DNA of 61,287 nt, counting the filler, from Dirinaria sp. TL-2023a (Eukaryota), in assembly GCA_051941275.1 (NCBI GenBank). It is 17 parts of 17 records of this genome, joined end to end, with 100 filler letters (N's around TTAATTAATTAA, not from the genome) between each part and the next. Parts side by side here need not be neighbours in the genome. Positions count along the whole stretch, not along the records: positions 54,228 to 57,716 come from JAVEBF010002040.1; 16 more parts are not named here. One strand, written 5' to 3'. A model generated the notes under the pieces. It searched no databases and had not been told where the DNA came from. It saw only the letters and a program-made list of their open reading frames with translations. Each line of letters opens with the position of its first letter. The first letter of the stretch is position 1. Made by a program: the position numbers and the translations under genes. Below are positions 1-57,716 of the stretch, in pieces.

Positions 1-177
1 ATTACTATTCGTCGTAGATGTCTGTGTCTTCTTCGTACTTCATAGTCTTATCAGTTATAAAATGCTATCTAATTTGATAATGCAATCTCAAGTTCGAGCC
101 GATTTCGTACCTCCGTCAGACCCCTGAAAATTTGATATAGTCATAGCAGACTGTGGCAGAGGGATTCTTGCTGTGCG

Positions 178-1160
178 GTGATCAGTTGCGACTTCGCCCC
201 TGAGACTCAAATATCATGTTCAGAGCATGTCGCACAGGATTTAGAGCATTCATTGTATGCTGCTTTTTTAGAGTATATCTACGAGGGTGGATTTGTTGAG
301 AAGATTCTAATTCTCTTTCTAATCACTGAGACTTCACTTCATCTCTCATCATCAAAGTCTCATCATCGCAGACATGACGTCTCAAGTTCAGACAGCGAAC
401 TTCGAGCAGCAGACATCGCGGATGATAAACATTTCTCTGCTCCTCTTCTAGATCCTCAATCTGACAGTGAAAGTAGATAGATTCATCTATTTGCACAGCG
501 TGTGAGATTGATCGATTTTCAAATCAGCAACTTAATCGAAAGATCAACATCCTTCAGAATCAACATAACATCCTAAATGATCAATTATTTCGATCGAGTC
601 ACATCAATCAGCTCAACGAGCTTCGTATTCGAATCATTAGCCACGAACGAGAAGAATATGTCGCACTGACAGAGTCGTCGAAACAAGTCGCAGTCAGTCT
701 TCAAAAAGAACTCGACAATCAACAGACGACTTTCGAAATTCAGAGAAGAGAGTGCGCTATTGTCGTTGAGTCGCTCAAGCACGAGTCGACTCGTCGAGAG
801 ATAACAGAGCGATCTCTAGAGCACGAAAAGACTGTCATTCAGAAGATGATCAGCATTCTTGACAAAGTTGAGCTTCTCACGCGCGAGATTTCGATCATTG
901 GCCTTTTCGAGAATATGAGTCTTAGTACCCTTGTTTACGAATGAGAAGATTTCAGATCAGAAATAAAAACTCTGCGAAACGAGTTTCAGCGCATGATCGA
1001 TGAGCTGAGACACAAGCAACTTGTTCTTGAAAATCTATCAGAAAATTTTGGAGTCCAATCACAGAGCATGTCAAAAAAATCTTTCTATGACCGCGACGAG
1101 AAAGTCAGCGTCGAGATAACTGAATTGCAGACAGTCTCGAGAGTACATGAAGTGAGACGA
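178..1160 (+). pseudogene. Mutation-degraded coiled-coil protein gene fragment
   Basis: From about 630 to 1080 one frame reads as heptad-like E/K/Q/L-rich text (SLQKELDNQQTTFEIQRRECAIVVESLKHESTRREITERSLEHEK...RSEIKTLRNEFQRMIDELRHKQLVLENL), broken by TGA. It shows the same GG/CC depletion as the neighbouring patatin relic. Boundaries are approximate. Confidence 0.4.
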
Positions 1161-1596
1161 TGAGTTTATTGAGAGAAAAAAAAAAGTAGACACTCACGAA
1201 ATCATTTGTGTCCTCTCGAAACAGCTTTTTTTTATCTGCATCTTGCTGCAAAAAATGCTTTGTAGCTCGCTCGGCTATTTCATAGATCTGTAACTCGTAG
1301 AATTCAATTCTGTATCTTCAAAATCTCTCTTCAAGTGCTGAATTCAAGTTTCTGTAGACGAGCGAGATCGAGACTGTTGACAGTCTTTTATACTCTCAAG
1401 AGCATGTCAAAAGTGAAGAGTTTATTTTTCATTTGCTGATCGTGTCTGACATCAACTGAAGAGGGTTTCTCACGAACTGCTGAGAATGAATGCACATAAA
1501 GAGTCGAGTTTTGAATAGACAAGACGCATATAAGACCCGACACGATTCTTCTTGCTTTATTTAAATTACGAGACTGTACTTGTTAGCATAATCAAC

Positions 1597-3539
1597 ATGA
1601 CATTTTGTAAACACCTTGAATGACTACAGATAGTAGATGAGAAAGAGATTGCGTTGATCAACTCAGATCGTCTGACGAGAGTCGTTGATGAGATGACTAA
1701 TTCAGCAATTCAGCAACCCTCGATTCTTTTATTCATAGGTCGGAAAGTCAAAAATCAAGCTCTTCGAGAGCTTTTCTCAAATCACATCAAGAAAGAGCGT
1801 AACGACGGCATAGCTACTCTACGAATCGATAATACTAGTCTCTACTCTGATCATTCTGTCCTATTTGCCGAAAGCGATTCGTCTGCGACGATCGCATCGA
1901 CCTTCAACGTATTCTGTCATGAGTTCGAGTCGTTTCTTATTCGATGAGCAAATGTCACAACCGCGCACGAAGTCTACGACATTCTGCATGCTCGACTGCT
2001 CTGTTCATTCAGCGATGTCCTGTGTGTTTTTGCGAACGACTTCCTCAATTTCAGTAGCGTTGTCGATCGTCTCAAAACTTGAGCCGTTGCCGAAGGAGGG
2101 TCGAATCCCGTTGAGAAAGCCAGATCAAGTGTTGTAATCGTCAAAAGCGGTGCCGAGACAAGTGTCAGTTCTACACATGATCTACTCGAGATGCAAGATG
2201 TCAAATTCAGTCTGAATCAGAAAGTCTTGAAGGATTTCTACTCTTTCGTTAAGATATTACATCTGGCGAATGAGCAAATATCGTCATTGACACGTTTTCG
2301 GCGGCTCAAGGAGTTACTTTGAAGACAGATGAATGAGGTGCGAAATCTTCGCTTGCGCTGTCGATGCCTTTACTCTGCCATGCATCTGAACAAGTTCTTT
2401 CAGTTAGTCGTATCACACACAGCAGTCTCTGTTCTTCGATCTTTCAACTTCGTTACGGCAAGCCGTCTCGAGAACGAAGTTGACGCAGATCACGTCGGTC
2501 ATCTAAATTTATTCTTCCGACTTGATAAGAATCACGATCTATCGAACGACATCATGAGACGTTTCATTGCTTCTATCATATTACTGAACGCATATCCTTT
2601 TAGAATGCATCGTGAGTATCTACACTGGCAGTAAACAAGCTACTGACTAATTCAAGACTTAGACTTTGACTCGAACACAGTCTACGATGTCATCTATCAC
2701 CCCTCGTGCTTTAGATCGCTCGTAATCTCTTTCAAAGAGTCATTGAACTCGGAAAATGAGGCTGTGAAGCAGATCGAGGATCAAGAGCAATGCATCAAAA
2801 GACACTTTGTCACGCAATTTGTGAGTATGATCTCGTTCGATAAGACCGCGACGCAAGTACATCAGAAGAATGCAAGTGATCTCGATATATCATGACCGCA
2901 GCTTCAGAGTAATCGTACGTGTCTCTGATGCTTTCGTCGAAGATCAGAAAATCATCTGTCATGCGGACATGCGATATGCAACGTCTGTGTGCGGATCTTT
3001 GAGAATGAGACGCCTCTTGCGGAATGTCAATATCATGTTCGGATCTGTGTTCTATGCCATTTCGAAACTTGCGCGATCAGACTCAAGTCTTTCTCCGCGG
3101 ACGAACGGCTTTTGACTATTGATGAGAGAGACACACGTGAGATTATTCCTTTAGAGATTCTGACGATAATTCAGAATATGATGAGGAATGAACTTCAGAT
3201 TCAAGACTTATTTGATATTGCCTTCGACATCAGTGTTGATAAGCTTCGTGTTCTGATCTTGTCAGAAGTCAAGCTTACAGATGAAAAAGAGAGTCTCATT
3301 GTGTGCATCTTATTTCTACGCGAAATGTCAGCTTCTCAATGTGTTCACATTTTCGACGCATTGACTCGAAAACTCTTTGAACGATCTCAAGAGCCGACAA
3401 ACATCTTCAAACGTCTTCGTCTGTTCTTGAAGAGATGATATAGAGATGATCATTACGATGCGAACGCTCTCGAAGATCGTTAGAAGAAATATCTAGAAGT
3501 CGACGATCGCATGTTCGACTATCATTCACGAGTCATTGT
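1597..3539 (+). pseudogene. Hypermutated patatin-like phospholipase (large fungal type with Cys-rich RING-like segment), 3'-truncated by contig end
   Basis: ATG at 1597 (MTFCKHLE*LQ). Intron 2612-2662 (GTGAGT...CTGAC...TAG). Cys cluster CL*C...SCGHAICNVC...CVLC. Degenerate oxyanion motif LLTIDERDTREIIPLEIL (expected DGGGTRG, 3121) and nucleophile elbow DIAFDISV (expected GTSVG, 3226). Several in-frame TGA at expected Trp positions. Confidence 0.85.
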
Positions 3540-3639
3540 NNNNNNNNNNNNNNNNNNNNNNNNNNNNNNNNNNNNNNNNNNNNTTAATTAATTAANNNNN
3601 NNNNNNNNNNNNNNNNNNNNNNNNNNNNNNNNNNNNNNN
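3540..3639. other. Artificial contig-joining spacer (first of 16)
   Basis: 44 N + TTAATTAATTAA (stops in all six frames) + 44 N. Identical spacers start at 7179, 10813, 14444, 18071, 21697, 25319, 28938, 32550, 36153, 39754, 43354, 46947, 50539, 54128 and 57717. Contig lengths never increase along the window (3539 to 3471). Confidence 0.99.
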
Positions 3640-4311
3640 ACCGTATCCTGGCTCGCTTACCCTTAACTGCCTTCCCGCCCCCCCTTGGCGGCTTGGCCCC
3701 TCCACACACTCAAATCCTTCTCGGCAACCTGCAGGCAGTAAACGGAGCTAAGATCGCTGTCAACCATCTCATCGGTCCCGTCTGGTTATTTTTTTCTCTC
3801 TCCTCCATACAAAGAGAGTACCTTGGGTATTATTCTTATACGGAGTACGAAGACGCCGAGGATCCATCAATACGCGGACTAGCTCTTTCGGGACAAGGAT
3901 GACCAGATAGATGCCCTAGTCATGGAATTCTTCTGCGAGGCTGGTGGATCCCAAAGCTACCTACCCTACCCTCCCTTCCCTCCCTTCCCTACCTGACCAT
4001 ACAGCTCAGAGGCAATTTTTTTTTGTCATGCTGGTCTGACGTGATGGTCTCCACGACCCGGTCGGCGTGCATGGCTGGCAATATGCACCCCTCCGGTCCA
4101 AGGTATCTCCATGTACACACAGCGAGGTACAGTATATGGATACATCACCCCGCCTCCCCTTCTCTTCCCTTCTTCCTTCTTAGTCTACTGCCAATATCCC
4201 AATCCGTGTACGGCAAGAACTCGCTCGCTACGGTTCTGCTGTGTCACTCTCGCTTTTCACTTTTTTGTCTCCTTGATTGATACCAGGGAACGATTGTTCT
4301 CTTCATTCACA

Positions 4312-5970: not shown

Positions 5971-7278
5971 ACCCCGCCTTCCCACTTTTTGTATTTGTCT
6001 AAGCATGAAAAATGCACAGGAAAAATCTTACGTTCTTGATGAAGTTGAATGACAACCTTATGACTAGGGCAAGTTTATAGATAGCAGGATGCCCTTGGGT
6101 CCCACACTCCTTTTTTTCAACATCCGAAAGCAAACCGGGCCAGCAGTTCACTGTGGCTCGCTAAAGAGAGGAAGAAGTGAAGGGAAGCATTTGGATATCT
6201 ATGGCTAATTGTTAATAAAAACCCTCCGGCCCGCCCGCCCGCCTAACGACGGCGTTTTATATAGTTCTCTTTCCTAATTTGCGCTAGGGAGAGGGATTAC
6301 CGATATATAATATTGGATGATTACCCAAGGTTTAACATAATCATCGAATCTTAAAACTAGAAAATCGGGCATCATCAAGTAGTAGATGGGACAAATTTAT
6401 TTGCATTAATTTTTGATCTTGGGAACCCACTTGTAATGTCCCTCAAAAAAAACAAAGCAAAACAAGCAAACCACTCTTTCCCAAATCCCAATGAAAGGAA
6501 TCTAGAACCGCAAACATGCATAGAGTATCGAATACTTGAACCACCTAAACCCCCCCCCCACAACAACATATCCCCAAACCCGCCAGCAGTAAAGAATGGC
6601 CACTTTACCTTACCATTTGGCATGCGCGGCATGTGTGTGTTGCGAAATCTTGGCATTTGAAAATTCTTCCCTCTACATCTCAAACCACCCCTTCGTCAGC
6701 GATCAACAATCCTTTTTTTTTTCCCTTTCCATATCTATGGAATTCCCTCTTATAATTTTTTTTTTTTTTTTTCCTTTTTCTTTTTACTGCCTCGGAATTT
6801 TGGATATATCCCTCCAACCCATTCGTTCCTCTCTCCAGCTCAAAGAACGAGAACCCAAGCCCCAAAAAACCCATTTTTTCAGGGAAAGTACCCGATGTGA
6901 AACTAATTCAAGTACCGCTGTCAAAAAAAGAACGCTAGAAAAAAAAGACGAAACTAGATGGAAGAATTTGTCGCAATTTTTTAAGGAAAATACACAGAAC
7001 CTTTTGACAGTAGACGACCACCAAGGAAAAAAGGTTCAGGAGTGGTAAAAATTGACGCCATGCAGAGTAAGAGGAAGAAAATAATTTTTGAGATGTCAAG
7101 GATTTCGGCACCTACACCTACACATAATTAACCGTAAGGTATCTACCTCTGAACCCTGAATCCTCAAATCACAAAATCNNNNNNNNNNNNNNNNNNNNNN
7201 NNNNNNNNNNNNNNNNNNNNNNTTAATTAATTAANNNNNNNNNNNNNNNNNNNNNNNNNNNNNNNNNNNNNNNNNNNN

Positions 7279-10200
7279 ACTCTGGAGTTTTCTTCCAAGA
7301 TGCCGAGGTATCGAAAAGAAAACTAGAGGAAGAATTAAGCTTTTTTTCTCGATTGTGAATGTCTTTAGTATTATTTTGTTGACAGTTTCGATTTTCTTTA
7401 AGAGACGATGCTCTGGGGCAGAGATAAATTTCAAGTCCAGATTGTCTATTTCAAGCTACGTAACTGTGGAACTGTTTAGTACAACCCCATAATGAGATAG
7501 ACACGATACAACGAGTTCGAAATTGCAGAAATAGTCGATCGAGGATGTAGAAATTATCGATTCTATGATCGACGAGTAACAATTCGCTTACAACAGAAAG
7601 AAATGAAAACGTTCTCGTTTCCCAATTGTCTTTCTTGATGACGTTTCTTTTTCTGATGTTCATCTCGTTCGCTCAAAGTAGGTTTTTTATCTTTTCTTTC
7701 GTCAATTTGACTCGACTTTTCTTGACGATCGTTCTTTCTTCGCGATAAACGTTCGAGAGTTTTTTCATTAAAGCGATCTTGAGAGCATGTACGACATCAT
7801 AGATAATTCGAAGTTTCAGCCCTGTGATTGCTACGAGACAGCAGGCTTCGTTCGTTATTGTATACATGACACCCGAGATTTTCGTTCGAGATTGCGACTT
7901 CTCCGATGAGTTTTAAGAGCTTGAGAAAATCGTTCGTAATTTCGATAAATTTTAGTATGATCCTGTTCTTTTCTTTTTCTCGTGAGTCTTGGGCCTTGTG
8001 CTCTTCTTTTTCTTTGCCGACTCTGAGATATCGGGTGACATAGTCCCCTTTTTCTGTTGAGGGCAATTGCTACGCCTCGATCATAAATCGTTGGTTCCTA
8101 CGCCTTCAGTCGACTATATCTGCAATTTCGAAATCGTTTTGACGTGTTCGTATCATCGTGAGATTATGTTTAATAGTCTCCTAGCGTAGTCAAGCAAAAA
8201 ACAATCAAGACTTGACTTTCCACCACTGTGCCATAGCAGAAGTGTAATACTGAAGATCTTCTCATCAATGTGCTGAATGTGAAAGACGATTTTTTAAATT
8301 TTCTCAATGGATTTTGTTGCTTTTCAGATTATTTCTTTCTTTTTTGAAGAGCTGACTTGGAAATCAGTTTCATAGAACCATTTAAAAATTCAAACAAACT
8401 CTTGTTCTTTTCATGCTCTTTCATAACAGCTTGTTTGGAGTTGATTTCTTAATGAACGAATCTCTTTAAAAATTATCTCATTTTAATTGTGTAAAAAACG
8501 AGACTATTTTAGAATGTGGTTCAAGATATTCTCAGATATTTATTCGACTTTGGAGCTTTCTTCCAAGATGCCGAGATATCGAAAAGAAAAATAGAGTAAG
8601 AGTTAAATTTCTTTTCTCGATTGTGAATGTCTTTGGTATCGTTTTTTTACATAGTCGTAACGCTTTTTTTCTCGTTTTCTTGAGCAAGAGAGAGAAGAAG
8701 CAAGAGATCAATTGTTTCTCAGCTTCAGACAATAAAATTTTTTGTTGCGAATCGATCGACTATTCCTGCATCTTCGAATCTAGTTATCGTTTGATCGTGT
8801 CTGTTCCACCATGGAACTGTACTTAATAGTCCCGTAGCTTCGTAACTTAGAAGAAACAATTTTGATCTCGATTTTATCATTGGTTCATAGCATTGTTGTT
8901 TTCCGAATTATTTCTTTCTTAATTAGAGAGCTGACTTGAGATCAAACTCGTATGTAGCAGCTTCGAATTACGAAGTATCGTCTCTTGAGAATCAAACAAG
9001 CTTTTGTCTGTGTTAAATTCTTTCATGAGATTTCTTCAACGTAAGATTGTTGAAAGATAACTTTTTTGTTTTTTCGATTTTCTCAATGAATTTAGCTGCT
9101 TTTCAGATTATTTCTTTCTCCATTGAAGAGCTGACTTGGAAACCAGCTTCATATGAGTATTTCTGAAGAGTCGAATGAGCTGGGTCTGTCTATAACAGTT
9201 TGATGAGTTTTCCATATGATTTTGATATTTGAAATCGATGATTTTTCTTAAGAATAGAGTTTGCTCGCTTGCACACTTTCTTCATTGACTCTGACAGATC
9301 TCCGCGCAAAAGTTTGACCGCTCGACTGCGTATCGAATGATCCGATCCAGCTCTCTATCTACTCGTCAAATGTATATGATTCGTTTATTCATTCGGCGTA
9401 GCGATTAAGATGAGTCTGCTGCTAGAAAGCAGTTCTCGAGACCTGCCGTTGAGATCGATCCTGAGAAAGCAACAATCGAGAATTTTGTAGACTTTCATTA
9501 AAGAGTGTTCTTAGATATTCTTTTGAGCTTTTCGAAAGTCGAAAGAAAAAGTAGAGTCAAAGTCAATTTTCTTTTCTCGATTGTAATTGTTCTTGAGTAT
9601 TTATGATTCCATGGCGTTAGCAATCATAGTGCTAGGACCAGAACCGTGATACTAGAATCGGGGTTCAAGGACCACCTTCTCTACTACGGTGGTGGAGCTC
9701 CTTCCTTCACATGTAACTGGCATGGTAATTAGTATACCAGATGATTCTTGATAGAAATCCAACTTCATCCTCTTCCCACTTTTTGAACACTCCAGCTGTG
9801 ACCCAGTTGTACTACAACATGACTGATTTGTTTGAGTCAAAGTTAATTTTTTTCGAAGTCGAGAAAAATTGCAAAAATTGATTTTGAGTTTAAGATTTCA
9901 TTGTCGCAGTTTTATTTGTTCTTGAGTGTAAACGACAACGTTTCGATTTCTCTCGATGAGTTTTTCAGCTCTATTTCTTTTTTCTTTGTTAGAAAGCTGA
10001 CTGGAATCAATTTCACAAGTAGCAGTTTCGAATTTCTCTATATGTCTCTTGAGAACCAGACAAATTCATCTCTTTTTCATGCTCCACCATGACTTCTTTA
10101 AAGCTGAGTGTCAGGGAACGGATTTCAGCCCTTGTGACAGGAAACCGGACCCCTTGACAATGTATTTTAGCTCGAGATAGTCCAATACAGAAATTCAATT

Positions 10201-10812
10201 TCTTTCTTTTATTGTATTTCTGCCTCTAAGGATGACATTCCAGTCTCTTAAATTGATATTACTGCTCGTTAGATTGACGTTTCTGCCCCATAGATCAGTG
10301 TCTACCATTGAGTTGTGGTTTAAGAACAACGTTTGTCAATCGACGAGATTTTCTTCGAATCTGATTTATGAGTATTCAGTATTCTCAGAATTTTAATTCA
10401 AATTTTTGTCGAGTGTTCGAGAAATTGATAAAAAAAGATAAAATTCGAGTTATTTTCCTTTTCCCGATTGTGAATGTCTTTAGTATCGTTTTGTTGATCT
10501 TTCCAGCGTTTTCGTTTCTGAATTTCACTCCCGTAGTCGCTTTTTCAGATAGAAGCTTGCCCTTCACTCTCCCCCATAACAGCTTCTTTCAAAATTAAGT
10601 TCTCGATAAATCAAATCGATGATTTCGTTTAATAATGAGATCTCATTTAGAATTTGATTCAAAAGTATTCCCAGATATTCGTTCGAACATTTTTTCGAGA
10701 AATCGAAAAGAAACTTAAATTATGCGTAAAGTTTCTTTTTTTTTCTCAATTGTGAATGTCTTTATTATCGTCTTGTTGATAATTTTAATTCTTTTTTCCA
10801 TTGATTTTTTTA
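7279..10812. repeat. AT-rich degraded modular repeat array (whole contig)
   Basis: Module A (anchor GATTGTGAATGTCTTT) at about 7351, 8619, 9579, 10466, 10748. Module B (anchor GAGCTGACTTGG) at about 8349, 8928, 9128, 9994. TCGA-rich and GG/CC-poor; no credible ORF. Confidence 0.75.
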
Positions 10813-32549: not shown

Positions 32550-34085
32550 NNNNNNNNNNNNNNNNNNNNNNNNNNNNNNNNNNNNNNNNNNNNTTAATTA
32601 ATTAANNNNNNNNNNNNNNNNNNNNNNNNNNNNNNNNNNNNNNNNNNNNACATCAGCTGCACTGTCGCTGAATACATAGCTGCAAGCCATGGATTCGCTG
32701 TTGCAGAGCTAACCCCCAAACAAGTGGTCTTGGGGAGCGCGTCGCATCTCATTCGTCATGGGCACGCTCTGGCGCCCGGATTAACCGTAGATAAGGTTCT
32801 GGAACATTGGTGCCATTGCGAGCCTCAAATGGTGGTGATAGGGATTAGGGACCCGAACGCTCCTCGTCGACGTGTGAAGCCTGCGGGCAAGAACTCAATT
32901 GACAGGATCAGACTGGGGTACCTTGCATTGTTAAAGTTGTCAGCTCCACATGTCCACTGATCATCTGTGACTCCGTCCGAGAGCAGATGTATCTACCCAT
33001 TGCCGCCTGGGCTGACTGGCTGATCGTGGGTAGGACCCGCGAGGGCCGCGACTTGCCACATCAATGATTGGCGAGTATTGACGCATCTTTCACATGCCAC
33101 ACCGTTACCTTCGACCTTCTCTTCATGCACGTACACGAAGTGGTGCAGGGAGTCGAGCATTCCGATGCAGTGTCACGGCTGATCTCGCAGCGTCAACGTT
33201 GTACGGTAGCGGAATTTCACGATATGTAACCGTAACTACTGTAGAAATTAGATCTTCATGATCATTGCGAAGGTGGAATAATTACGCGTGAAGTTTTTTG
33301 CCAACTCTGCTTGCTTTTTCCCAAGACACGAAACCCAAAATCCCAAATCCTCCTGCTGCATGCATGAATGCCGCCGGCCTGGATCGCCTAGGTGGCTGCT
33401 GTCTGCCGACTGCTGATCCTTTTTCGTGTTAGACGGGCCAGAGAGACCGAGTACACTTTCTTTCTAGTGTCCAACCAGCAGGCGTTTGGCCAAGCTAGAG
33501 GGTGCATACTTTGGCACCATCCCCTCGGCTATCTACGAGATCTCAACCCTTGAGATCTTTATAAGGATTTATACCCCAAACCTCATAGCTATCAGGTTTC
33601 TCTTCTGCTTCCAGAGCAATTTTCATTCTCCCATCCCAAGTACTTCCTTCACAGTACGATCCTCCAAGTACCTTGTTATTCGTGGCCTATGACTGTCGTT
33701 CTACGATTCGGAGCAGCATGCGGCAATCCGTATCTGCTCGGTGATGATTGATATTAATCTGCTCCCATTCTCGGAGTCGTTCGCCATTGTCAGTCGATCT
33801 TGTGTGCCTCAAGAACATTCAAAAAGTGATTGGTACACGAGTGTGCTCTGGTTGGTATAGCGCGCAGAGTGGTCCCAAAGGAGGACATGGACCCAATCAT
33901 ATTTGCTCTTTCTCGACCGCGTTTCTCGAATGATCGAGGTGCATAAATCGCAATAATAATTTATCTCGCGTCTCCACCACAGCCGTGGAAAACACGTGGT
34001 AGTCAATGGGAAATTCAAGCATTCGAGGACTTCGCTGCTTGATGGCCAAAGGGCCTCCTACGCAATCCTCCGTGTTATTACCTTA

Positions 34086-34867
34086 TCACCGCATCACGGG
34101 CGGCCTCCCCTCGGAATTCCAACTCACTCTACTCTTGATCCATTCCACCGCTTCCCTCACTCCGGTTCCTTTCAGTGCACTGATGGGCAGGACCCTACTG
34201 TCTCTAACCCCTCCACCCTTCTTGCCCTCGAACACTCTCCTAACCAGGCCTTCTTTGATTTTGACAGTCTCAACGCAATCCTCACGGTCCTGCTTGTTCG
34301 CAAGCACTAATATAGGCACACCCTGGGTAGCTTCTGAAGAGATCACCGACTCGAGTACCAGCCTACATTCTTGAAGCCGTCCTACATGCTGACCCCCTCC
34401 TTGATCCTCACTTTCCCCATCTCTTTCATCGGTAGCATCAGCTCTAGGATCTCCACCATCAAGCCGATCGTTCTGCAGATCGTCAAGTTCGCTGTCTCCC
34501 AAATCGCTGCTATCCACAACAAAGACCACGGCGTGGCAACTCTCGTAGTAGCTTTGCCATAATCGCCTTAGACTGTGTTGTCCACCGACATCCCAGATCT
34601 TTAGATACACATCTCCGAGATCGATGGTGGCTACATTCTGCCCGACTGTAGGCACGGTCTTCTGCGCGGTAGGCGGAGCCGATGGGTTATAGAGGGATTT
34701 GATACTAGAGAGGAGTGTGGTTTTGCCGGCATTATCGAGGCCTAGGAGAAGTATCGAGAATTCTGCATGATTGTTAGGCCACTTGTCATTGGCTCTGACC
34801 CCCTGCAACGGAAATTACCTTCTTTGCTGGTTGCGTAGGTGTAAATGGCCTTGGCTAGGTGGTACAT
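34086..34867 (-). CDS. ARL3: Arf-like small GTPase Arl3/ARFRP1, 241 aa; exons 34867-34819, 34762-34086
   Basis: MYHLAKAIYTYATSKE|EFSILLLGLDNAGKTT, PTVGQN, WDVGGQ, NKQD and SAL motifs. No Gly2, as expected for acetylated Arl3. 56-nt GTAATT...CTAAC...CAG intron. Confidence 0.95.
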
Positions 34868-35056
34868 TGTGAAGCGGAGGATTAGGGGAGAGCCTGCCTG
34901 CGCAAGGGCAGCTGATAAGATGCTGCAGAGACTGGCATACTTTGGAGTAGAAGAGTCCGAAGACTTCTTCAAATCGCCATGAAGCGGTCATCGCTTGGTC
35001 AAGCCGCAGGGCTGTGAATCTGGTGCCAAGCTCTCCTGTCCGAAGGTCATCTGTGA

Positions 35057-35068
35057 TTAGGGTTAGGG
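35057..35068. promoter_or_regulatory. Interstitial (TTAGGG)2 telo-box about 190 bp upstream of ARL3
   Basis: TTAGGGTTAGGG in the promoter region; function is inferred only. Confidence 0.3.
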
Positions 35069-36253
35069 TTTGTGTCATTGCTGCCCCTTATTGCTCAAGC
35101 CGAATTTTTTTCGACTGGACATAGGAAGGTACCTACAACATGTTTGCCTGTGAAGACTTTTTGAACTCCAGTTTAATGCTAATATCCTCGAACGCTTCGA
35201 ACCAAAGATTTGATATCGTATTAAGCTCTCCTGTGCTTGCTATGAAAGATCTGGACACAGGTTCTCCTTTTTCAAGGGTAAAACCTGAATGGGTAAAGAG
35301 TAACAAATCTTACTCCTGTATCTCTCAGGGCCTCCTTCAATAGATTGATGTGTTTATAAATTCCTTATAAACTCGAGAATGACCTCCAATATGGCCACAA
35401 CGAAGTCACCCGCAAAATGGACTTATCTCCGAACTAAACCACAACACCTGTCATAGAGCCCGGTGATCAAACATCTACAAAGATATAGCAACGTGAGGGG
35501 TATCATTGCTGCACAACTATTCAGAACCTTAACAGCATATTCCTTTTTCTTTTTTCGAGTGATGATTTAACGAGTTGGATCTCTAATGAATTCAATTTGA
35601 TTAATTAGCGCCATAGGTACCCCACCAGAAGTCATATTTGCGGACATAGCTGTCATTATGAGTTCCTACTACAAGTACTTTTATCGCCACAGGCTGTTCT
35701 CTTCCTTAAGACCGTCCCTCTTTGATCTAGTATCGCCTCGGTGCATATTCTGATTCAGAGCGCGCTACCTACGCCTGAAAGGGAGCCTGTGGTAAAGTTG
35801 CTCAGCCATTCAGTCCCTGCTTTCGAACCACTGTCCCGTCTTCGAGTACAAAGACAGCATGTGAATTGAGGAAACGAAATTCAAAGGTTGATCATGAGCA
35901 CAAAGCTAGAAATATCGCTCTAGCCCGTTTACATTGCTAATCTCTCCGAATGGTAGGAGGTTCGAAGAAAAGGATGTAGCAAATTGCGCTATCGAAACCC
36001 TTCTAGAAAGCAGGGACCGGTTGCCGTTCCTATATCGATAAGTGTGAAAAACCAGGCGCCAATGACAGCGCACATTTAGCATCCTCCTCCTCCTCCGCCG
36101 GAGAAACTTGCAGCAGCGCTTGAAGTAGCAGCTGCAGCTGCAGCTGCTACTTNNNNNNNNNNNNNNNNNNNNNNNNNNNNNNNNNNNNNNNNNNNNTTAA
36201 TTAATTAANNNNNNNNNNNNNNNNNNNNNNNNNNNNNNNNNNNNNNNNNNNNC

Positions 36254-38225
36254 CTAAAAAACAGCCCTCAAAACCCGCTTCGGCCAAGACCTCGATTCAA
36301 TTTCCTCCACGACGCCCGGATCGAGATCGAGTTCGCGCAAGCCCGATTTCAGATCCATCTCGTGCGCGCGCCGGTACAGCCCGCCGTCGCCGCGCGAGAA
36401 GGCTTTCCAGAAGAGGTACAGCACAATAATAATGGGCGCGGCCATGTAGTTCTGGAAGAAGACCTCGGCGCTGGCGGAGGAGCCGATGGGCTAGATAGAA
36501 AGTTTTTTTTAGGTGAGGACGGAGGGTAAAGGAAGGGGGGGGTTTAAACTTACCCATAGACTGGTATAAAAAGTCGCGATGATAGCCAGCACATTCAGAA
36601 TGAAGCCGATCCAGCTCCCGATAACGCCGAAGGAGGCCTGATACGGTAATTCGTCCAGGGTATGGCCCTGGACTTTCCAGCCGTGCCGAAACCGGATGTG
36701 GCAGAGACAGATGGAGCCCCAGACGAAAAAATACGAGAGACCGGACAGCGCCAGCAGCCAGGTGAACACGGTCGATCCGACCGACGCCTCCTGGATAAAC
36801 GCCAGCAGGCCGAACAGGAGCTGGATCACGACGCACCAGATCGGCCGGCCTTTCTTGTCCACGTAGGCCAGGAACCGCGGGCCCATGCCCGTCGAGGCCA
36901 TGGCCTGCATCGTGCGCGTCGAGGCGAAGGTGCAGGAATTCGCCACGCTGATGACGGAGATGGTGATCACGGCGTTGAAAACCGAGGGCAGGCCCTTGAT
37001 GCCCGCCGTGGAGATGGCCAAGACGAACGGCGACGCTTTCGTGTTATCGGTCGAAGCACCCAGCAGATCGGGCGAGTCGGACGGCAGGATCAGTCCGACC
37101 ATGAAGAGGCTGAGGACATAGAACCCCGCGATGCGCCAGAACACCTGTTTACTGGCCTTGGGAAGCGATTTCCGGGGATCCGCTGCTTCGGCTGCTGCGA
37201 GACCAACCAGCTCCGTGCCTGCGAACGCGAAGGCTGCGTTGACAAAGACGGAGCAGAACCCTTTGAAGCCGTTGCGGAAAGCGCCTGGATGATGCCAGTA
37301 ATGCGCGCCGATGTACCCGCGATGGTCGGTTGGGACGCCGCCACAGTCGATGATAACTGCTAGGATGATAAAGCCAATGACGGCGATGACTTTGATCATT
37401 CCAAGAACGAATTCGACTGGATTACTCTTTCAGCAAAATGCCGCCGAAGCAAAGGGGAAGTTTGAAGCTTGGACGGCATACCTTCTCCGTATCCTCTAAC
37501 ACCAAAGACTTGAATAAGAGTCAGGACGACAAGAAAAACCGTGATCCAGACACCTGTAATCAAGTTCAGAAACTTGTCTTGAGGCTCGAATACTTTGACT
37601 TATATATTGATGTCCGTTCGCCAGAAGTCGATCGTCAATCCCGCGGCGATGAGCTCGAAAGGCAATACGGTGAGCCAGGAAATCGCATAGTCCCAGCCAA
37701 TCGCAAATCCACTATCTACGTTTTAGTCTCAAATGTCCGGCGCATCTACTCGCAATCAACTCACACAGCCGGGTCGAGGAAGCGGCAAAAGTATTGGTAG
37801 AAGGCTCCGTTCACCGGGTACAGGACTGCAAGTTCTCCGAGTGCTTGAACGGTACAGAGCAGCATGCCTCCTGTGATCAAGAACCCCAGAAGCTTTTTAT
37901 CTGGTCAGAAGATCCAAGGCTTCGCTTTCTTTATCCCATTTACTTACAACACTGCCAGGGCCACCACTGTGGAAGGAGGGGCCGGAGCCCACGAACAGAC
38001 CGGCGCCGATAGATCCACCTTTTTGTAGAGCACAATTCAGAATGGAGCATTCAAGCGTAGTGGAGGTCGCGATCACATACCGATAGCAATCATCTGCATA
38101 TGGCGACCTTGGAGACTGCGCGAAAGCACGCCGTTGCCCGGCACAGTCTCGATGTCATGCTCGTCCGGGGAGCCGTAGCCGACATCTTCTTTGGTGGGGC
38201 TGAAGTCCTTCTTTTCCTCGGCCAT
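36254..38225 (-). CDS. Amino-acid permease (APC superfamily, yeast amino-acid transporter family), multi-exon
   Basis: [57 protein letters not shown] and KQVFWRI motifs. Several GT-AG introns; TAG at 36254. Confidence 0.95.
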
Positions 38226-50638: not shown

Positions 50639-53600
50639 CGTATCCTGTATTTGGTTTTGGACCTCTGTTGATCTGTGCGGGCATACTAGATGGGTAGAGA
50701 CATTTACAGATACTTCTGGAGGACCCAACGATCACGGAGGAAGAAACGAATGGGAACAATTCTTATCGCAGCGTCGGAAAGCACCCCTTCCTACCGTCTG
50801 ACCTTGTCGTTAGCTAAAGCACTAGATAGTAGCTAATGTTCGGCCATTGCCCCAGGACCTCGATTGTGAAAGCTAATCTTGTTGAGCATTGACTTATCTC
50901 ATGAGATGTTGATGCCGAATACGATCTTGCTTACTGGAAGGGAAAAGGAAATTGTCATACTAAGACTGAGTCCCAGTGCAAGGCTCTGTATCCTCGCTGG
51001 AAAAGCTTCCTTCGCTGATCATCCCCCATCTTTTCAACCGAAATCACGCTAGCGGCACCGAGGACTGTGCTTTGGATTCAAATCCTACCCGGGACCTGTT
51101 TACAATCCGACAAAAGACTTAGTGACAACCCGAAAACGATTAGTTCCTCCGGAACCCTACCTTACTTTGTTTGACCGCTAACCCTACCTCTACATCATTT
51201 GAGACTAAAGGAGCCTCTGTCAGCATCTAAAGGTATTCTACCTAGGTAAAGTGATTGAGACATTACAGGTGCTTCTCGAGGGTTCAAGACCACGTTAGGA
51301 ATGAATGGATTTCGGATCAGTACAGTTCATGTTGCCGCGTGGAAGCACCCACGTGATCTAGCCGTAGCGCATTGATGTTTATCAGTCATTGTTAAATAAC
51401 AGCTTCGCTCGCGAGAAAGCTTGATACTGGAGTTAAGAGAAAGTTTCTCCTCATAAGGCTAAGGTGAGATCGAGTAGAATGACCCGTATATTGGCCCGGT
51501 AAGCGCTTTCCATAGCTCAGGTCTGGTAATGGTGGTATGTGGTCTCCTTCCAATCTTTTCAATCCAAATCCCGCGAGCAGCACCAGGACTGTGCTTTGGA
51601 TTCAAATCCTACCCGGGACCTGTTTACAACCCAACAAAAGACTAAGTGACAACCCCGAAACAGTTAGCTCAGCCGCAGTCCTACCTGACTTCAACCGCTG
51701 ATCCAACACCCTTGAATCTCCGCCAATGTGCCTTCCCTCATCTTAGCTTCGATGTCTCTTAGAACCAGTATTTACACCTGAAAAAATGATATAAGCATTG
51801 TGTGAATACTGCATCGATATGATTTATAAGAAGTACTAAGATGTGAATACTGTTACTCCAGAGCTACCGCGTATTCTTGATCTCCTAGGATTTCATGACT
51901 GCCAAGGTAAATTTGAAGGTACATACAGTATCTCAAGTGGTTAAGAATTGACTCCTTGAAGCCCGGCATCAAGAGGGAAGAAAGAAATGAACACAGCTTA
52001 TGTTGCGATATCAAAAGCATCCTTTCCATCAAATGAGCTTGTCGTATGTTGAAGCATTGATGATCGCAAAAGCCCACAAAGTCTGTCTGAAAAGGCTTAG
52101 CTGACTGCATGATGAGCTGCTCTTGTGAGAGATCTTGAATATTTGAAAAATCTTGTGCCCGTAAAGCTGAGTCAGAGTGCAAAGATCTGTGCTCTACTTG
52201 TTAGCGTGGTGAGTGTTTCTCATAAAATAACTCAGGTCTGCGGTGATTTGTGATCTCTCTTCTCGTCCTTCCAACGCAGCTCCGCGCTAACAGCATCAAG
52301 AACTGTATTTTTGCTCCACATCCTACGCGCGACCCGTTCACAATCCAACAAAAAGTTAAATGAAATCCCTAAAACAATTGAGAAGACTTCTTCTAGAATG
52401 CGGGTGCCGACTAGCTCATCCGCGACCCTACCTTACCTTGCCTCAACTACCTCTTGCTTCGTCTTACCACCGCCAGATGCTGACCTTAAGTTCTTTGAAA
52501 GCTCCGTCAAGGTTTGAAGGTAATGTATACTAAGTAATTAGAACATTTCAGATACATCTCGAGAATCGAGGGCCATAGGCGAAGGAATGATTGAGTACAG
52601 CTCATGTTGCGGCATCAAGAAGTCAGCGATGTGTTTCGCATCTAGGTATAGGTGAAGCATTGATGCTCGCCAATGATCAGCTGCGCCTCAAGACCTTGGC
52701 TATAGAACCAGCATCTTTGGACAAATTCTTATCTTGTGGGATTTTCTTTGGGTGTTAGGTATGGTCTTACTGATGAAAAGAAAAAAAAGCTCTTCGTCAG
52801 ACTAAGTTCGAGTAGCAAGAGCCTGTACTCTACCTTACCTAAATATTTGCGCGGTAAGCGCTCTCCTCAGCCCAGGTCAGTGGTGCTGTCTGATAACCTA
52901 AGGTAGGTTCCTTCTCTTCAACCAAAACCGCGCTAGCAGCACCGAGGACTGTGTTTTTGGTCCAATTCCTACCCGCGACCTGTTTACAATCCAACAAAGA
53001 ACTAAGTGAGAACCCGAGAACGGTTAGATTCTTCGGAACCCTACCTTACCTACATGTATCTTAAGGTAAGGTAATTGCTTCAACCGCAAACCCTACGCAC
53101 TTCGAAACGAAAGGGACGTCCATTAATGCTTGAAGGTAATGTGTACATGGTTAAGTAAGTCACTGCACCCCAAAACCATGGAGCAAAGAACGAGTGGGCG
53201 CAGCTAATGGGCAGCATCGGAAGGGTTACTTTGCGTTACGGGCCACAGCTGTATGTTTCACATCTAGCTGAAGCATTGGATGCTCGCCAATATCCTGCTA
53301 TGGCCAAAATCTTGGCCAGGAAGTTGAGCTTGTTCGATCATGGCTTACCTCGTGGGAGCTTTTTCTTCTCTTTAAGGCTGACCTCCGAGTGCAAGAGCAT
53401 GTACTCGTCCTCCGTACGCAGTACTACTGCGCGGTACACCCTCGCATATCTTCAACCCGCACCGCGCTAGAAGCATTAAGAACTGAGTTCTTGGTCCAAG
53501 TCATTCCCTACAGACATTTACAACCCAACAAAGAGCTAAGTGACAACCCGGTAACGATTAGCTCGCCCATGATTCTACCTTACTTCCATCAACCGCTAAT

Positions 53601-54127
53601 TCTCAACCCTTTGGACTTTGTGGTCAATAGGAGTCAGTAATCAAATCCTCAATCCCTAAAGTTTTTTGGAATCAATCCCTGATTCCTACTCAGGAATGGG
53701 AACCAGATTCCGAATCCTGACATTTTGGAATTGATTCCTGATTCCTGACTGTAGAGTTTTGGGACCTCGGGGAGTTTTTGAAGATACGGGTTTCCGCACC
53801 ATAAATCCTGGCCAGCGCGGTCAATGCCACAGGTAGTGTTCACTAAAAGTCGCTCGGGAGACCAGCGAATATCGTCACCCGAAAGCCCCAACTTGGTCCT
53901 TAGAGTGCAGCTGTGCTCTCCAAAGCTTACCTGTAGTGACCTTATTGACTCGTCTTGGTACACATGACGCTAGCTAGCACTTTTGACGCCAACCTCCCGT
54001 TCGTACCTGTAGACCATAGGTGGCGTTAAGATGTTACAGGCGCTTTTCGAGGCCCAGGGCCATGAGGAAGGAAACGGGTACAGTTCATGTTGTGGAGTCG
54101 GAAAGCATCCCTTCTATTAGGTGACCT
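50639..54127. repeat. Long-period (about 520-710 bp) diverged non-coding tandem array, at least 5 core copies plus partial flanking units
   Basis: Core starts at about 51055, 51579, 52292, 52938, 53473; 45 identical bases at 51061-51105 and 51585-51629. Secondary modules recur in the same order (GACATTACAG...CAGTTCATGTTG at about 50697, 51257, 52541, 54028; GAGTGCAAG-like at about 50965, 52166, 52800, 53376). Confidence 0.88.
53631..53751. mobile_element. Possible MITE-like insertion
   Basis: Imperfect terminal inverted repeats (GAGTCAGTAATC... / ...GATTCCTGACTG followed by TA) and internal GATTCC/AATCC subrepeats. Absent from the other array units. Confidence 0.35.
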
Positions 54128-54227: not shown

Positions 54228-54662
54228 CAACAATGCATTGACCTAGATGGCAATGTCAGCAACGCACCCGGTAGGCATCTAGACACTTCCCCCTAGCCCT
54301 GCTAGACACTTCATGACGAGCCCCGCGCTGGCGAATCACGAGCGCTCGTAGACACAATACTCTATAAACGTCAACTGCTCACTGACTTTTAATCAGTCTC
54401 GAGATTCAGTCTTTCGACGCTGACTTCTAGGCGGCGCTAGCCATGCTTCAGACCCCGAAGGATTGCCCCTGGGCACCCCCGACTGCCAAGCGGCGCTAGC
54501 CTGCATTGGTCAATATATATCAATATATCAGATATCACTGTTACAGCGGTTAAGTATAGAGGATCACTCACCCTTTCGGAGGGGGTTCCTTAGTGATTAG
54601 TTCTAGCAGAAACTACAGTATCAGGTAGTCATATAATCTATTACACTGCCACGTCTTTCACA
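54228..54662 (+). mobile_element. LTR-like segment (normal GG/CC content) abutting the Gypsy gag remnant
   Basis: Short internal direct repeats (CTAGACACTT x2, GCGGCGCTAGCC x2), TATA-like TATAGAG, and an end in ...TTTCACA where composition switches to hypermutated sequence. The 5' end is cut by the contig edge. Confidence 0.45.
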
Positions 54663-57600
54663 CAAATACTGCGTCGGCGGATAATCGACGCATACGATCT
54701 TACATAAATTTAATCAAAACGACGCATCGTGCAAAAATAAAAAATTACTGAACGCTGAACAAATGACTGTCAAACTCAATTGAGATAATGAAAAAATAAA
54801 TCTAACAATAATAAATGTTGATTTCGAGTCAGACGAGTCTCTCTCGAAAAACGACGCTGAGTTCGAAAATGACTTCGACTCGAAAAACGAGTAAACTCTG
54901 ACGAAAATCGTTGTCAGAGACAAATACAATTCTTAATACGCGAACGAATCAATGAGCTAAAACGCGATTTACGTTTGAGCGATTTACAGCTAAAAGACTT
55001 CTTAAATGATTTCTCGCTTGTCAATATATGTTTTTTCAGTCTGAATCTTCACTCGAAAAAAAAGATTCGCAACGATCGACAACTGAAATTTCAAATCAAA
55101 ATACATCTTCTCAACGAAACTGTCAAACTGTTTCTGATAATCGATATCGAAGTTTCGACGCAGAGTTTCGTCGATTCGAAACTGATCAAACAACATAAAT
55201 TATTCACGATATCTCTCAAAAAATCAATAAAATTGCGACTCGTCGATTATAACATCGTTTTCGAAATTACTCATATGACTCAAATCAAGTTTTCTCTCGA
55301 CACTCATAAAGATGAGCTCTGATGTTTGATCACAAAGTTTGACAATCATTCACTAATACTCGATATGTTTTGAATAAAGAATCACGAATGCGACATCATA
55401 AATGAAAAAAAAGCTCTTCAGTTCAGTTTCACTCGTTGTCTCGCTCACTGTTTGATAAATCATCTGTCGATTAAGATCTATTCAATCACGTCAAAGAGAT
55501 TTAAAACTGATATCTCTACGTCGAATCACGAGAACGTTAACTTAGTCTCTGTTTATATTTTCTTCAAAATGTCGATGCAAATCGAGAATCAAATCATAAT
55601 AATGCACTTTGAGTACTTCGTAATGCTGAATCAATTAAAGAAAAACGATCGATATTTCGTTGACAATCTTTTTATCGCGAACGTGACTGCAATCACAGTC
55701 GAGAATTATAAAAAGTTTCACGATAAAATGAATAAGTCATCGCTAACACTCGAGAAACTCAAAGAAATGATTTTCGAAAATCATCATCTTTGATTGAAGT
55801 GTTGAAATTCGAAGAAAGTCAGCAAACTCTTTTTTCACAGATCTGTCGATCATTTAATCGATCTTCAATTTAACGCTATCTCATCAGCGAAAAAAATTTA
55901 CGACATGTCTCGCGATTAAATCGCAGTGATAAAGAAATATGTCGATGACATGCTCAAAAAAGATTTTATTCGACGAAATCATTTCGATTATATCGTCTCT
56001 GTTCTGATCGTCAAAAAGTCTGACGACGAACTGCGAGTTTGCGTTGATTATCGAGCTCTCAATACTTTAATCATTAAAAATCGCAATGCTTCATCATTGA
56101 TTCGCTATACGCTGACTCGTCTGTGTCATATCAAGATCTACATTAAGTTTGACATTATCGTCGTCTTCAACGAAGTCCGTGTTCGCGAAAAAAAATCAGA
56201 ACAAGACTGCTTTTATTACTCATTACGAACTCTTCGAGTATGTCGTCATGTCTTTCGAGTTATGCAATGCTCTCGAAATATTTCAATCATTTATCAACGA
56301 TAATTTTCGCGAGTATTTTGATAATTTCTTCACGATATATCTGAACGATATTCTGATTTATAACGAAAGTTATAAGCAACATCAGAAGCACGTGCACAAG
56401 ATGTTAAAGAAATTTAAAATCGCTAATCTCTTTCTAAACGTTAAGAAATGTCAATTCAACGTCACTCAAGTAAAATATCTGAGACTAATCGTCATTATCG
56501 AAAAACTCAAAATGAATCTCGACAAAATAAAAATCGTTCAGAAATGAGAGATTTCTCGCTCATTTAAGAATGTTCAAGTTTTTCTCGATTTCGTTAACTT
56601 TTATCGACGATTTATTTATGAATATTTCAAACTTGTTAGATCATTAACTCAATTGATCAAAACAGAAAAGAAGAGTACAATCTTCTCATAAACGTCAAGC
56701 AGTTCTGAAACAATAGCGTTCAAAGCTCTCAAACAAGCATTCGTAACTCAGTCAATTCTTAATCATTTCGATCTCTCAAAGAAAATCTGAATAGAAATCG
56801 ATGTTTTCGACTACGTGATTGTCGCGATACTATCTCAGAAAGACGCAGACGATCTTTTTCACTCAGTTGCATATATGTTCAAGCAAATGTTTTTCGTCGA
56901 ATGCAACTACGAGATTTATGACAAGAAATTTCTCGTTATAGTTCGCGTCTTTAAGAAATGACATCTCGAGTGCGTCGAAACGTCAATTAAAGATCTCATC
57001 AAAGTTATTAGCGATTATCGCAATCTAAAACATTTTATGATTATCAAACAATTGAATCGTCGACAAACTCGTTGAGTAGAATTTCTCTTCGAGTTTAATT
57101 TTAAGATTATTTATCGATCGAAAACTCAGAGAACAAAGTTTAATAGTCTCACTCGACGAACGCAGAATCTATTCAGTTTCGACAATGATTTAAGACGTCA
57201 ATTTCAGAACAAAACGATTTTTAAAAAAGCTAATCTGAAGTCAGAGATGACAAAAACTCTCGATCTAGTCTACGTCATGCTCGAGAACAGTCTCAGCATC
57301 GTCACTTAATTAACATCGATAATTTACGACGTCGTCATCGCGAACGAGAACATTTGAGTTTTAATTGACAATGATTTAATCGATGCTCAGTCTGAGTAAA
57401 CGACAAACTCGAACAATGAGATATTCGAGAACATTTTCACGACAATCGAATTGAAACAAAAAATTCGTAAAGTTTACAAAAAAACGATGATCTGCAACGA
57501 ATTATGAAAATCAAAATCTCAGAAACTCGCAAAATTTCTCATAATTTGCGACGAGTCGAATACAAACTACAATTATTAGATTTTGAGATTCGCAACGATA

Positions 57601-57716
57601 TGCTCTATTATCAGAAACGATTATACGTCTCAAACAAGAAAAATCTATACACAACGATTATTAGACAGATGCATGACTTTTTTTTCGCGAGACATTTAGA
57701 ACGCGAAGATATATAT
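54663..57716 (+). mobile_element. Hypermutated Ty3/Gypsy LTR retrotransposon: end of gag, then pol (PR-RT-RNaseH-start of IN)
   Basis: gag stop ...TCGAAAAACGAGTAA (about 54881-54895). PR LIIDIEVSTQSFVD. RT KKSDDELRVCVDYRALN, VMSFELCNA and YLNDILIY. RNase H EIDVFDY and ECNYEIYDKK. IN zinc finger start MHD...RH. Many stops and a frameshift. Confidence 0.95.

Follow-up and report, generated by a model that had tools for sequence, protein, structure and literature searches.

How does a 3-kb stretch of DNA come to hold one CC and two GG dinucleotides? The question is raised by a contig of Dirinaria sp. TL-2023a (assembly GCA_051941275.1, record JAVEBF010002040.1), most of which is taken up by the remains of a Ty3/Gypsy retrotransposon. 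We examined it as part of a window, by which we mean the whole stretch of 61287 bases that was analysed. The window consists of 17 contigs of 3471-3539 nt each, arranged in descending order of length and joined by linkers of the form N44-TTAATTAATTAA-N44 (the first junction at 3540-3639, and 15 more), so that contigs lying side by side in it need not adjoin in the genome. The Gypsy-bearing contig occupies 54228-57716; a second contig that matters below, at 1-3539, is referred to as the first contig. A preliminary description of this DNA had proposed hypermutation resembling repeat-induced point mutation (RIP), the classic mutational genome defence of fungi, with CpC as the target. We find that the best explanation, to which we assign a probability of roughly 0.8, is a Ty3/Gypsy relic in a lichen-forming lecanoromycete that was inactivated by repeat-directed, RIP-like CpC>TpC hypermutation on both strands, carried out by an enzyme whose kind we infer.

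A Gypsy relic nearly free of CC and GG

Across 54663-57716 (3054 nt) the single CC and the two GG correspond to observed/expected ratios (O/E) of 0.01 and 0.03, and the combined density of 0.98 per kb compares with 127 per kb in the 14 ordinary contigs of the window. The dinucleotides CG (195, O/E 2.29), TC (308, O/E 1.80) and GA (257, O/E 1.54) are in excess, CA (201, O/E 0.99) and TG (128, O/E 0.91) stand close to expectation, and TA (183) has an O/E of 0.55. The tetranucleotide TCGA occurs 59 times where 9.3 are expected, and TCG has an O/E of 4.06; the near-absence of CC and GG over 3 kb and the abundance of TCGA, both remarked on in the preliminary description, were thus recovered by counting. 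The depletion is far beyond chance, and it is local and not a property of the genome. Ordinary DNA of the window does not share it: 14 of the 17 contigs are normal, with O/E values for CC and GG of 0.89-1.16, and the upstream part of the Gypsy-bearing contig itself holds 48 CC/GG sites in 54228-54662 (435 bases). These sites thin out over ~54590-54680, and the last of them (54624, 54649, 54676 and 54679) mark the 5' edge of the mutated tract. Since two of the three surviving sites (54676 and 54679) lie at this edge, the saturated tract proper, ~54680-57716 (3037 nt), contains one CC (56177) and no GG.

The identity of the substrate is clear from its homologues and domain order. A phmmer search against 1.84 billion representatives returned 53927 homologues at E <= 0.001 and 1111 at E <= 1e-30 (best E 5.6e-103), the long homologues that were aligned are Gypsy-type pol proteins, and reverse transcriptase (RT) is followed by RNase H (Table 1). 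No Pfam family was found in 54828-56222 at E <= 0.01. The motifs singled out earlier read as quoted, with AAA AAG TCT GAC GAC GAA at 56013-56030 in place of KKPGGG, ATG TCT TTC GAG at 56248-56259 for MPFG, TAT CTG AAC GAT at 56338-56349 for YLDD and CTC GAT at 56584-56589 within FLG. The pol frame shifts once, near 56200 (56190-56210), and its stops within 56200-57200 are five TGA, one TAA and no TAG. Neither a long terminal repeat (LTR) nor gag nor a complete integrase was found on this contig. The distance between the tract's upstream edge and the protease-like region is only ~460 nt, which makes the element a 5'-truncated relic, and on the 3' side the contig ends near the start of integrase, where a segment compared by eye and not by a tool score presumably corresponds to the H-x-GH motif of that protein.

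The direction of change can be read from conserved residues. Two read-through pieces of the relic were aligned to 100 intact homologues (Gly+Pro > 8.5%, 700-1500 residues) taken from the best 151 of the 53927 matches, which gave 223 conserved columns with a homologue agreement of at least 70%. Not one of the 19 conserved prolines was kept (Ser 11, Leu 2, Phe 2, other 4), nor any of the 16 glycines (Asp 5, Glu 4, Lys 3, Arg 1, other 3), nor any of the eight tryptophans, four of which are now TGA and one TAA, the other three falling in a poorly aligned tail. Retention of Pro, Gly and Trp was thus 0/43 versus 123/180 for the other residues (Fisher p = 1.9e-18), and His, Gln, Cys and Met, whose codons necessarily contain CpA or TpG, were kept in 13/16 columns. 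C>T before C or G>A after G would also produce further frequent changes, among them Asp>Asn (5) and Ala>Val (5) as well as Ser>Phe (4) and Thr>Ile (3). C>T or G>A alone can account for 65 of the 100 changed columns, through 73 inferred events distributed as GpG 26, CpC 25, CpT 8, ApG 5, CpG 5, TpG 3 and CpA 1, that is, 51 of the CpC/GpG type versus 4 of the CpA/TpG type; the other 35 columns need different changes, partly owing to uncertainty of the frame after ~57400. The changes at conserved residues therefore point to the 5' C of CC as the base that was altered, on both strands, in agreement with the direction first proposed.

The same signature marks a gene that is not a retroelement. The first contig is partly depleted (CC O/E 0.34, GG 0.27, TC 1.65, GA 1.64), and its frame +1 from position 1621 shows 57% identity to a family with the patatin domain PF01734, the named members of which belong to Toensbergia and Squamulea, both lecanoromycetes, and to Aspergillus. 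The patatin-like pieces gave nothing in Pfam at E <= 5 and nothing in a homologue search limited to longer proteins, and the six read-through frames of 1-3539 and of 7279-10812 matched no Pfam family, one sub-threshold chance match aside. In 239 columns conserved among 19 intact homologues, Gly was kept in 4/17 (Asp 6, Glu 5, Arg 2), Pro in 3/16 (Ser 11) and Trp in 0/5, all five being TGA, so that Pro, Gly and Trp together were kept in 7/38 versus 179/201 for the other residues. Several of the latter showed no loss at all (Arg 21/21, Phe 20/20, Cys 12/12, His 9/9, Tyr 5/5, Lys 5/5, Gln 4/4, Met 3/3). C>T or G>A alone explains 44 of the 53 changed residues, and of 44 inferred events 40 are CpC/GpG, four CpT and none CpA. 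Public data hold this family in an intact form (P0272, a cluster of 11) and a mutated one (P0273, a cluster of 13), on contigs of up to 303 kb; the two align without gaps at 82% identity, IDGGGTRGVIPLE in one being IDEEDTRDVIFLE in the other, and the patatin motif IDGGGTRG is lost as IDEEDTRD. Two kinds of target are seen in the window, one a transposon and the other a gene that belongs to a family. Because the patatin-like gene carries the same signature, a process acting on retrotransposon complementary DNA (cDNA) only is insufficient, and the mutational process is not limited to retroelements.

Mutation spectra in related loci and in database proteins

Comparison at the DNA level rests on 79 loci retrieved from public metagenome contigs by alignment of the Gly/Pro-poor copies described below. 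Tracts nearly free of CC/GG occur in 13 of the 79, all of them among the 16 loci on JAABU/JAABV contigs and none among the other 63. Three element families, with copies at differing stages of mutation, are present in these loci. For family A the unmutated 5' 3.2 kb of the copy L005 served as reference. Against the saturated copy L013 it shows 198 C>T, 125 G>A, 14 T>C, 2 A>G and 2 transversions, so that 323 of 341 differences are C:G>T:A transitions, distributed over both strands. By context, 140/165 CpC sites are changed (0.85), compared with 27/177 CpG (0.15), 28/241 CpT (0.12) and 3/234 CpA (0.01), and on the other strand 85/104 GpG (0.82) compared with 5/183 TpG (0.03). The partly mutated copy L003 (C>T 67, G>A 33, T>C 12, A>G 5, no transversions) is cleaner still: CpC 64/91 (0.70), CpG 0/89, CpT 2/130 (0.02), CpA 1/103 (0.01), GpG 30/46 (0.65) and TpG 0/94, or, with strands pooled, 94/137 CpC/GpG sites (69%) versus 6/598 of all other C/G sites (1%), a ~70-fold selectivity. 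In family C the unmutated L026 differs from the partly mutated L071 at 0.44 of CpC sites and at 0.06-0.08 of other contexts, and from the heavily mutated L025 at 0.85 of CpC, 0.49 of CpG, 0.37 of CpT and 0.21 of CpA sites. The order in related loci is CpC >> CpG > CpT > CpA. The context tables of these related families have CpC and not CpA in the lead (L005/L013 and L026/L071); a 3'-C preference accompanied by lesser CpT and CpA changes, as first suggested, needs amendment, since CpC is dominant and CpT secondary but the second targets in the relatives are CpG and CpT, not CpA.

These copies also disclose how the process works along the sequence. The preceding base is without effect, CpC being changed at 0.80-0.86 for all four -1 bases (ACC 0.84, GCC 0.80). 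The C before the final C of a run, in CCA, CCG or CCT, was converted in 194/197 cases in L013 and 192/197 in L017, and the first C of CCC in 31/72 and 24/72, respectively. The first C of CCC escapes once the middle C has become T, which indicates that the mutator reads the current sequence over successive events, and CCC runs often end as CTC. Terminal CpC conversion between L005 and L013 is ~98% versus a non-transition divergence of ~0.1% and reverse transitions of ~0.5%; active hypermutation is therefore favored over slow decay. The edges of tracts are sharp, both in the Gypsy-bearing contig and in the public loci. Inside saturated tracts, three identical ~240-bp elements with TGTTA...TAACA ends, resembling solo LTRs, have normal CC and GG (L034:5151-5400, L034:11751-12050 and L005:1501-1750). 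These unmutated copies could fit a minimum repeat length and equally a very recent insertion.

A further trace of the process lies in protein collections. Among the best 151 of the 53927 Gypsy matches, 12 contain < 4% Gly+Pro, 10 of them essentially none (P0005, P0007, P0008, P0058, P0059, P0073, P0079, P0099, P0112 and P0151), with Trp at 0.8-2.5%; these Gly/Pro-poor entries originate from ENA, JGI and Logan assemblies. In the patatin family, 9 of 32 entries are essentially free of Gly and Pro (P0273, P0274, P0278, P0282, P0284-P0287 and P0290). Such entries reach 986 residues, and their Trp content is normal. According to the codon table, TGG>TGA is the only stop that CpC/GpG chemistry can produce, so that the stops it creates are TGA only and relics keep long frames if TGA is taken as Trp. 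When TGA is read in this way (translation table 4), the longest open frame grows from 149 to 376 residues in the Gypsy-bearing contig and from 239 to 1311 in L017, with 0-1 Gly or Pro inside. Hence the Gly/Pro-free database proteins most probably represent mutated relics in which gene callers took TGA as Trp, and, judging from the frames of the loci, the Trp of the Gly/Pro-poor entries would be TGA codons; a tblastn comparison of 28 Gly/Pro-poor proteins with the 79 loci gave no match at >= 90% identity. Recoding of TGA does not restore a gene, for the TAA stop and the frameshift near 56200 remain and the 376-residue frame is free of Gly and Pro.

Indices designed for classical RIP do not register any of this. 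TpA/ApT is 0.56 in the tract and 0.76 in the 14 control contigs, (CpA+TpG)/(ApC+GpT) is 1.08 and 1.22, and the composite index of the tract is -0.52, where Margolin-type thresholds, as quoted in the relevant part of PMC3897900, are > 0.89 for the former ratio and < 1.03 for the latter. The classical indices consequently call the tract and every mutated locus tested unaffected, which bears out the early remark that TpA-based indices would miss the signal; the ratio (CpC+GpG)/(TpC+GpA), in turn, is 0.002 in the tract versus 0.93 in the controls.

Coordinates and other contents of the window

The features that were located are collected in Table 1.

Table 1. Features located in the window, with strand and the basis of each assignment.
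Feature	Position	Strand	Basis and remarks
Unmutated flank	54228..54679	.	CC/GG density normal, thinning from ~54590
Ty3/Gypsy pol relic, 5'-truncated, saturated with CpC>TpC and GpG>GpA	54680..57716	+	Runs to contig end
RT, N-terminal part	55839..56222	+	Translation (frame 0) and homologue alignment; KKPGGG read as KKSDDE at 56013-56030
RT core	56218..56481	+	Pfam RVT_1, E 8.7e-10, residues 8-95 of the 56197-57714 read-through; MPFG -> MSFE, YLDD -> YLND
RNase H-like domain	56704..57096	+	Pfam RT_RNaseH_2 (E 2e-16, residues 170-256) and RT_RNaseH (E 1.4e-14, residues 192-300)
Probable integrase zinc-finger start, cut by contig end	57600..57716	+	Frame-0 translation ...MHDFFFARHLEREDIY; frame uncertain
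Patatin-like phospholipase pseudogene	1621..3537 (contig 1..3539)	+ (frame +1)	Homologue search
Third low-GC contig, membership uncertain	7279..10812	.	GC 0.36; CC O/E 0.81, GG 0.42, GA 1.72

Short internal repeats (60-180 nt, 67-92% identity) are numerous in the third low-GC contig, and the depletion there is weaker and strand-skewed. Dispersed internal repeats of ~140 nt at 74-85% identity (e.g. contig positions 387-529, 912-1053 and 2272-2411) were also seen in 50639-54127, where the composition is normal and no CpC-specific excess was found among the repeats. Elsewhere in the window, open frames code for fungal proteins, namely SUR7, an Arf GTPase, an amino-acid permease and proteins with a Zn2Cys6 cluster or a fungal-specific transcription factor domain. 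At 36509-37399, the fragment of the permease shares 79-84% identity with proteins of Lecanoromycetes that form lichens (Pseudocyphellaria, cf. Caloplaca, Pycnora, Sticta, Icmadophila, Cladonia and others) and 96% with one further entry, so that a lichen fungus of the Lecanoromycetes is the most likely source; another comparison, of a protein from the window, placed it in the Ascomycota. Positions 4001-6000 have a GC skew of -0.26 to -0.33 at 52-56% GC, and two long open frames there, 4111-4737 and 4837-5970, matched no Pfam family. A perfect 30-nt palindrome at 36123-36152, at the very end of the contig 32650-36152, is possibly an artefact of the assembly end.

The proposed mutator, its rivals and its relatives

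Which agent could leave such a trace? The sequences show that C is converted to T on both strands when the next base is C, appearing as GpG>GpA on the other strand, and that the +1 base is the only one read by the mutator. It acts round after round on the sequence as it then stands, until every CC is gone, halting sharply at the edge of the segment and striking a presumably duplicated cellular gene as well, with CpA, the classical RIP target, as the least-hit site. Cytosine-C5 methyltransferases typically take their context from the +1 base, whereas deaminases of the AID/APOBEC and DddA types take theirs from -1. For this reason, and because homologues of RID and DIM-2 are reported in the lichen fungus Cladonia rangiformis in the pertinent part of PMC12542154, we propose a cytosine-C5-methyltransferase-like enzyme of the RID/DIM-2 kind with a changed preference for the 3' neighbour, which may act during the sexual phase on DNA that is duplicated, as happens in Neurospora.

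The rival that comes nearest to this proposal keeps the repeat-directed CpC>TpC process and changes the catalyst: the RID/DIM-2 type would give way, for example, to a cytosine deaminase acting on double-stranded DNA or to some other deaminase that is recruited. A different catalyst is conceivable, given that the hierarchy puts CpA, favored in Neurospora, last. Deaminases of the AID/APOBEC and DddA types read -1, however, and here no -1 effect was seen. The +1-only specificity is instead as described for Neurospora RIP in the passages drawn on from a preprint (10.1101/344036), and the Cladonia homologues mentioned above likewise speak against the rival, although the account of Pucciniomycotina in PMC3318451 has RIP-like hypermutation for which no close rid homologue was found. 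On balance we hold a non-RID enzyme to be unlikely. Slow decay is a further rival: methylation of repeats in CpC context, followed by spontaneous deamination of 5-methylcytosine over evolutionary time, would also yield C>T on both strands, a +1 context and confinement to silenced repeats. Yet in L013 the 194/197 terminal CpC converted stand against only 18/341 differences other than C>T/G>A, from which the CpC rate would lie orders of magnitude above background, and the partly mutated L003 has 69% of CpC but 1% of other sites changed. We reject slow decay as improbable.

Editing of retrotransposon cDNA by an APOBEC-like enzyme during reverse transcription has a resemblance in its favor, as the target is a retroelement and APOBEC3G prefers CC and leaves G>A in GG context. 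But AID/APOBEC editing works on one strand, reads a -1 context and is restricted to retroelements, and the tract and its relatives differ in all three respects: both strands are saturated (CC 1 and GG 2 in the tract; 198 C>T and 125 G>A in L013), the preceding base is without effect, and a patatin-like cellular gene copy has the same signature. Moreover, the 5' C of CC is changed here, whereas APOBEC3G deaminates the 3' C. We rejected such editing as very improbable. A further view is that nothing mutated at all, the composition being native to a foreign organism with TGA as Trp, or else produced by sequencing or assembly. Frames do lengthen under table 4, and gene callers have deposited such frames as proteins. 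Against this, the frames are essentially without Gly and Pro, invariant RT and patatin positions are lost (YLDD>YLND, MPFG>MSFE, IDGGGTRG>IDEEDTRD), a TAA stop and a frameshift persist in the relic, and the same contig is normal upstream; nearly all differences between intact and mutated family copies are C>T or G>A, and the signature appears on contigs with nine accession prefixes and in Gly/Pro-free frames from ENA, JGI and Logan alike. This view was rejected as highly improbable. As for ultraviolet damage in sun-exposed thalli, lichens are strongly exposed, and such light does cause C>T at the dipyrimidines CC and TC; but TC is gained and not lost (O/E 1.8), the rate is no lower with a purine at -1 (ACC 0.84, GCC 0.80), it is the 5' C that is mutated, and the changes fill confined, sharp-edged segments in which ~98% of terminal CpC were reached. 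We consider it scarcely credible and rejected it too.

Several observations weigh against the repeat-directed CpC>TpC explanation. No second copy of the Gypsy family was found within the window, and the ancestral bases of the relic come from protein homologues only. Its matches to the 79 loci are weak (63-379 nt at 65-84% identity); the spectra thus belong to other element families, and they show the process and its action, not the history of this relic. Dependence on repeats in the genome of the window is likewise deduced from what the sequences are and not from copy counts, and the internal repeats of the low-GC contig at 7279-10812 show no CpC-specific excess. The strand of mutations is interleaved, with patchiness weak at most (runs test z -2.0 to +0.4). 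Finally, the copy that supplied the family A reference is itself half mutated: along L005:3410-8995 the first 3.2 kb are unmutated (14-30 CC/GG per 250 nt) and the remaining 2.3 kb saturated (0-2 per 250 nt), with a switch near L005:6650, which could reflect a partial duplication or an assembly chimera.

The likeness to RIP in Neurospora crassa and other Pezizomycotina, where it depends on RID and DIM-2, is extensive. In both cases C:G>T:A transitions, almost alone, strike both strands of sharply bounded segments, which here too are probably repeated; transposons and a gene that is probably duplicated are among the targets, rounds continue to saturation, and the context lies in the 3' neighbour. 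In Neurospora, as set out in the part of the preprint 10.1101/344036 used here, the 3' neighbour sets the context, neighbours further away matter little, and context differences fade at saturation. What differs is the target, which is CpC here (85%), with CpA least at 1% (L005 vs L013); none of the CpA preference, TpA enrichment and positive indices of canonical RIP was found, and the stops created are TGA only. RIP has been reported in lichen fungi, namely Xanthoria (preprint 10.1101/2025.11.25.690456), Cladonia rangiformis (PMC12542154) and Endocarpon (PMC3897900); these reports, in the portions relevant here, use GC content or classical indices and do not give a CpC context. The TpCpG hypermutation of Pucciniomycotina (Microbotryum, Puccinia and Melampsora; Horns et al. 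2012, PMC3318451) is, in the sections drawn on, similarly RIP-like in its C>T changes, its non-CpA target and its conservation within a lineage, but its target is a trinucleotide, with T required at -1 and G at +1, and CpG is lost in consequence, unlike the process here, in which -1 is irrelevant and CpG is kept. We rejected this type as well, in view of the CpG O/E of 2.29, the TCG O/E of 4.06 and CpC being struck whatever the -1 base. Considerable variation of target sites among ascomycetes is noted in the same account, citing Clutterbuck 2011. Formally, CpC>TpC is one of the four RIP types of RIPCAL (Hane and Oliver 2008, PMC2621366), where the index (CpC+GpG)/(TpC+GpA) is defined; in the portions of that study used here CpA dominates in the species analysed, and a case dominated by CpC is absent. 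According to a survey published in 2025 and covering 1239 fungal genomes, at least in the part that bears on this question, RIP-like defences have a CpA preference in common and were active in only a few clades (PMC12543289). A search of full-text literature found no CpC-dominant RIP, supplements lying outside its scope and a mention there or in Clutterbuck 2011 or Gladyshev 2017 being possible. The process is therefore a real RIP-like one with a new and very clean context, and otherwise of a kind already known.

The clean CpC form suggests that the target context can be switched completely, which opens the question of where in the enzyme the neighbouring base is recognised. It most likely accounts for odd database entries, the long Gly/Pro-free frames with Trp that are open only through TGA, and engineers of base editors would be interested in an enzyme system whose conversion of C beside C in double-stranded DNA is ~70-fold selective over other contexts (L003). 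More tentatively, and with less than even odds by a wide measure, one might speculate about a defence of a lecanoromycete lineage in which CpA is the least-hit site (CpC >> CpG > CpT > CpA), exerted by a re-targeted or altogether different double-stranded-DNA cytosine-modifying enzyme of near-absolute CC specificity, and common enough that surveys by TpA index or AT-rich k-mers take affected genomes to be free of RIP and that many pseudo-proteins without Gly and Pro, called with TGA as Trp, have entered public protein collections. Because TpA/ApT, the composite index and AT-rich k-mers miss tracts of this kind, the spread of RIP may have been underestimated, at least in lichen fungi.

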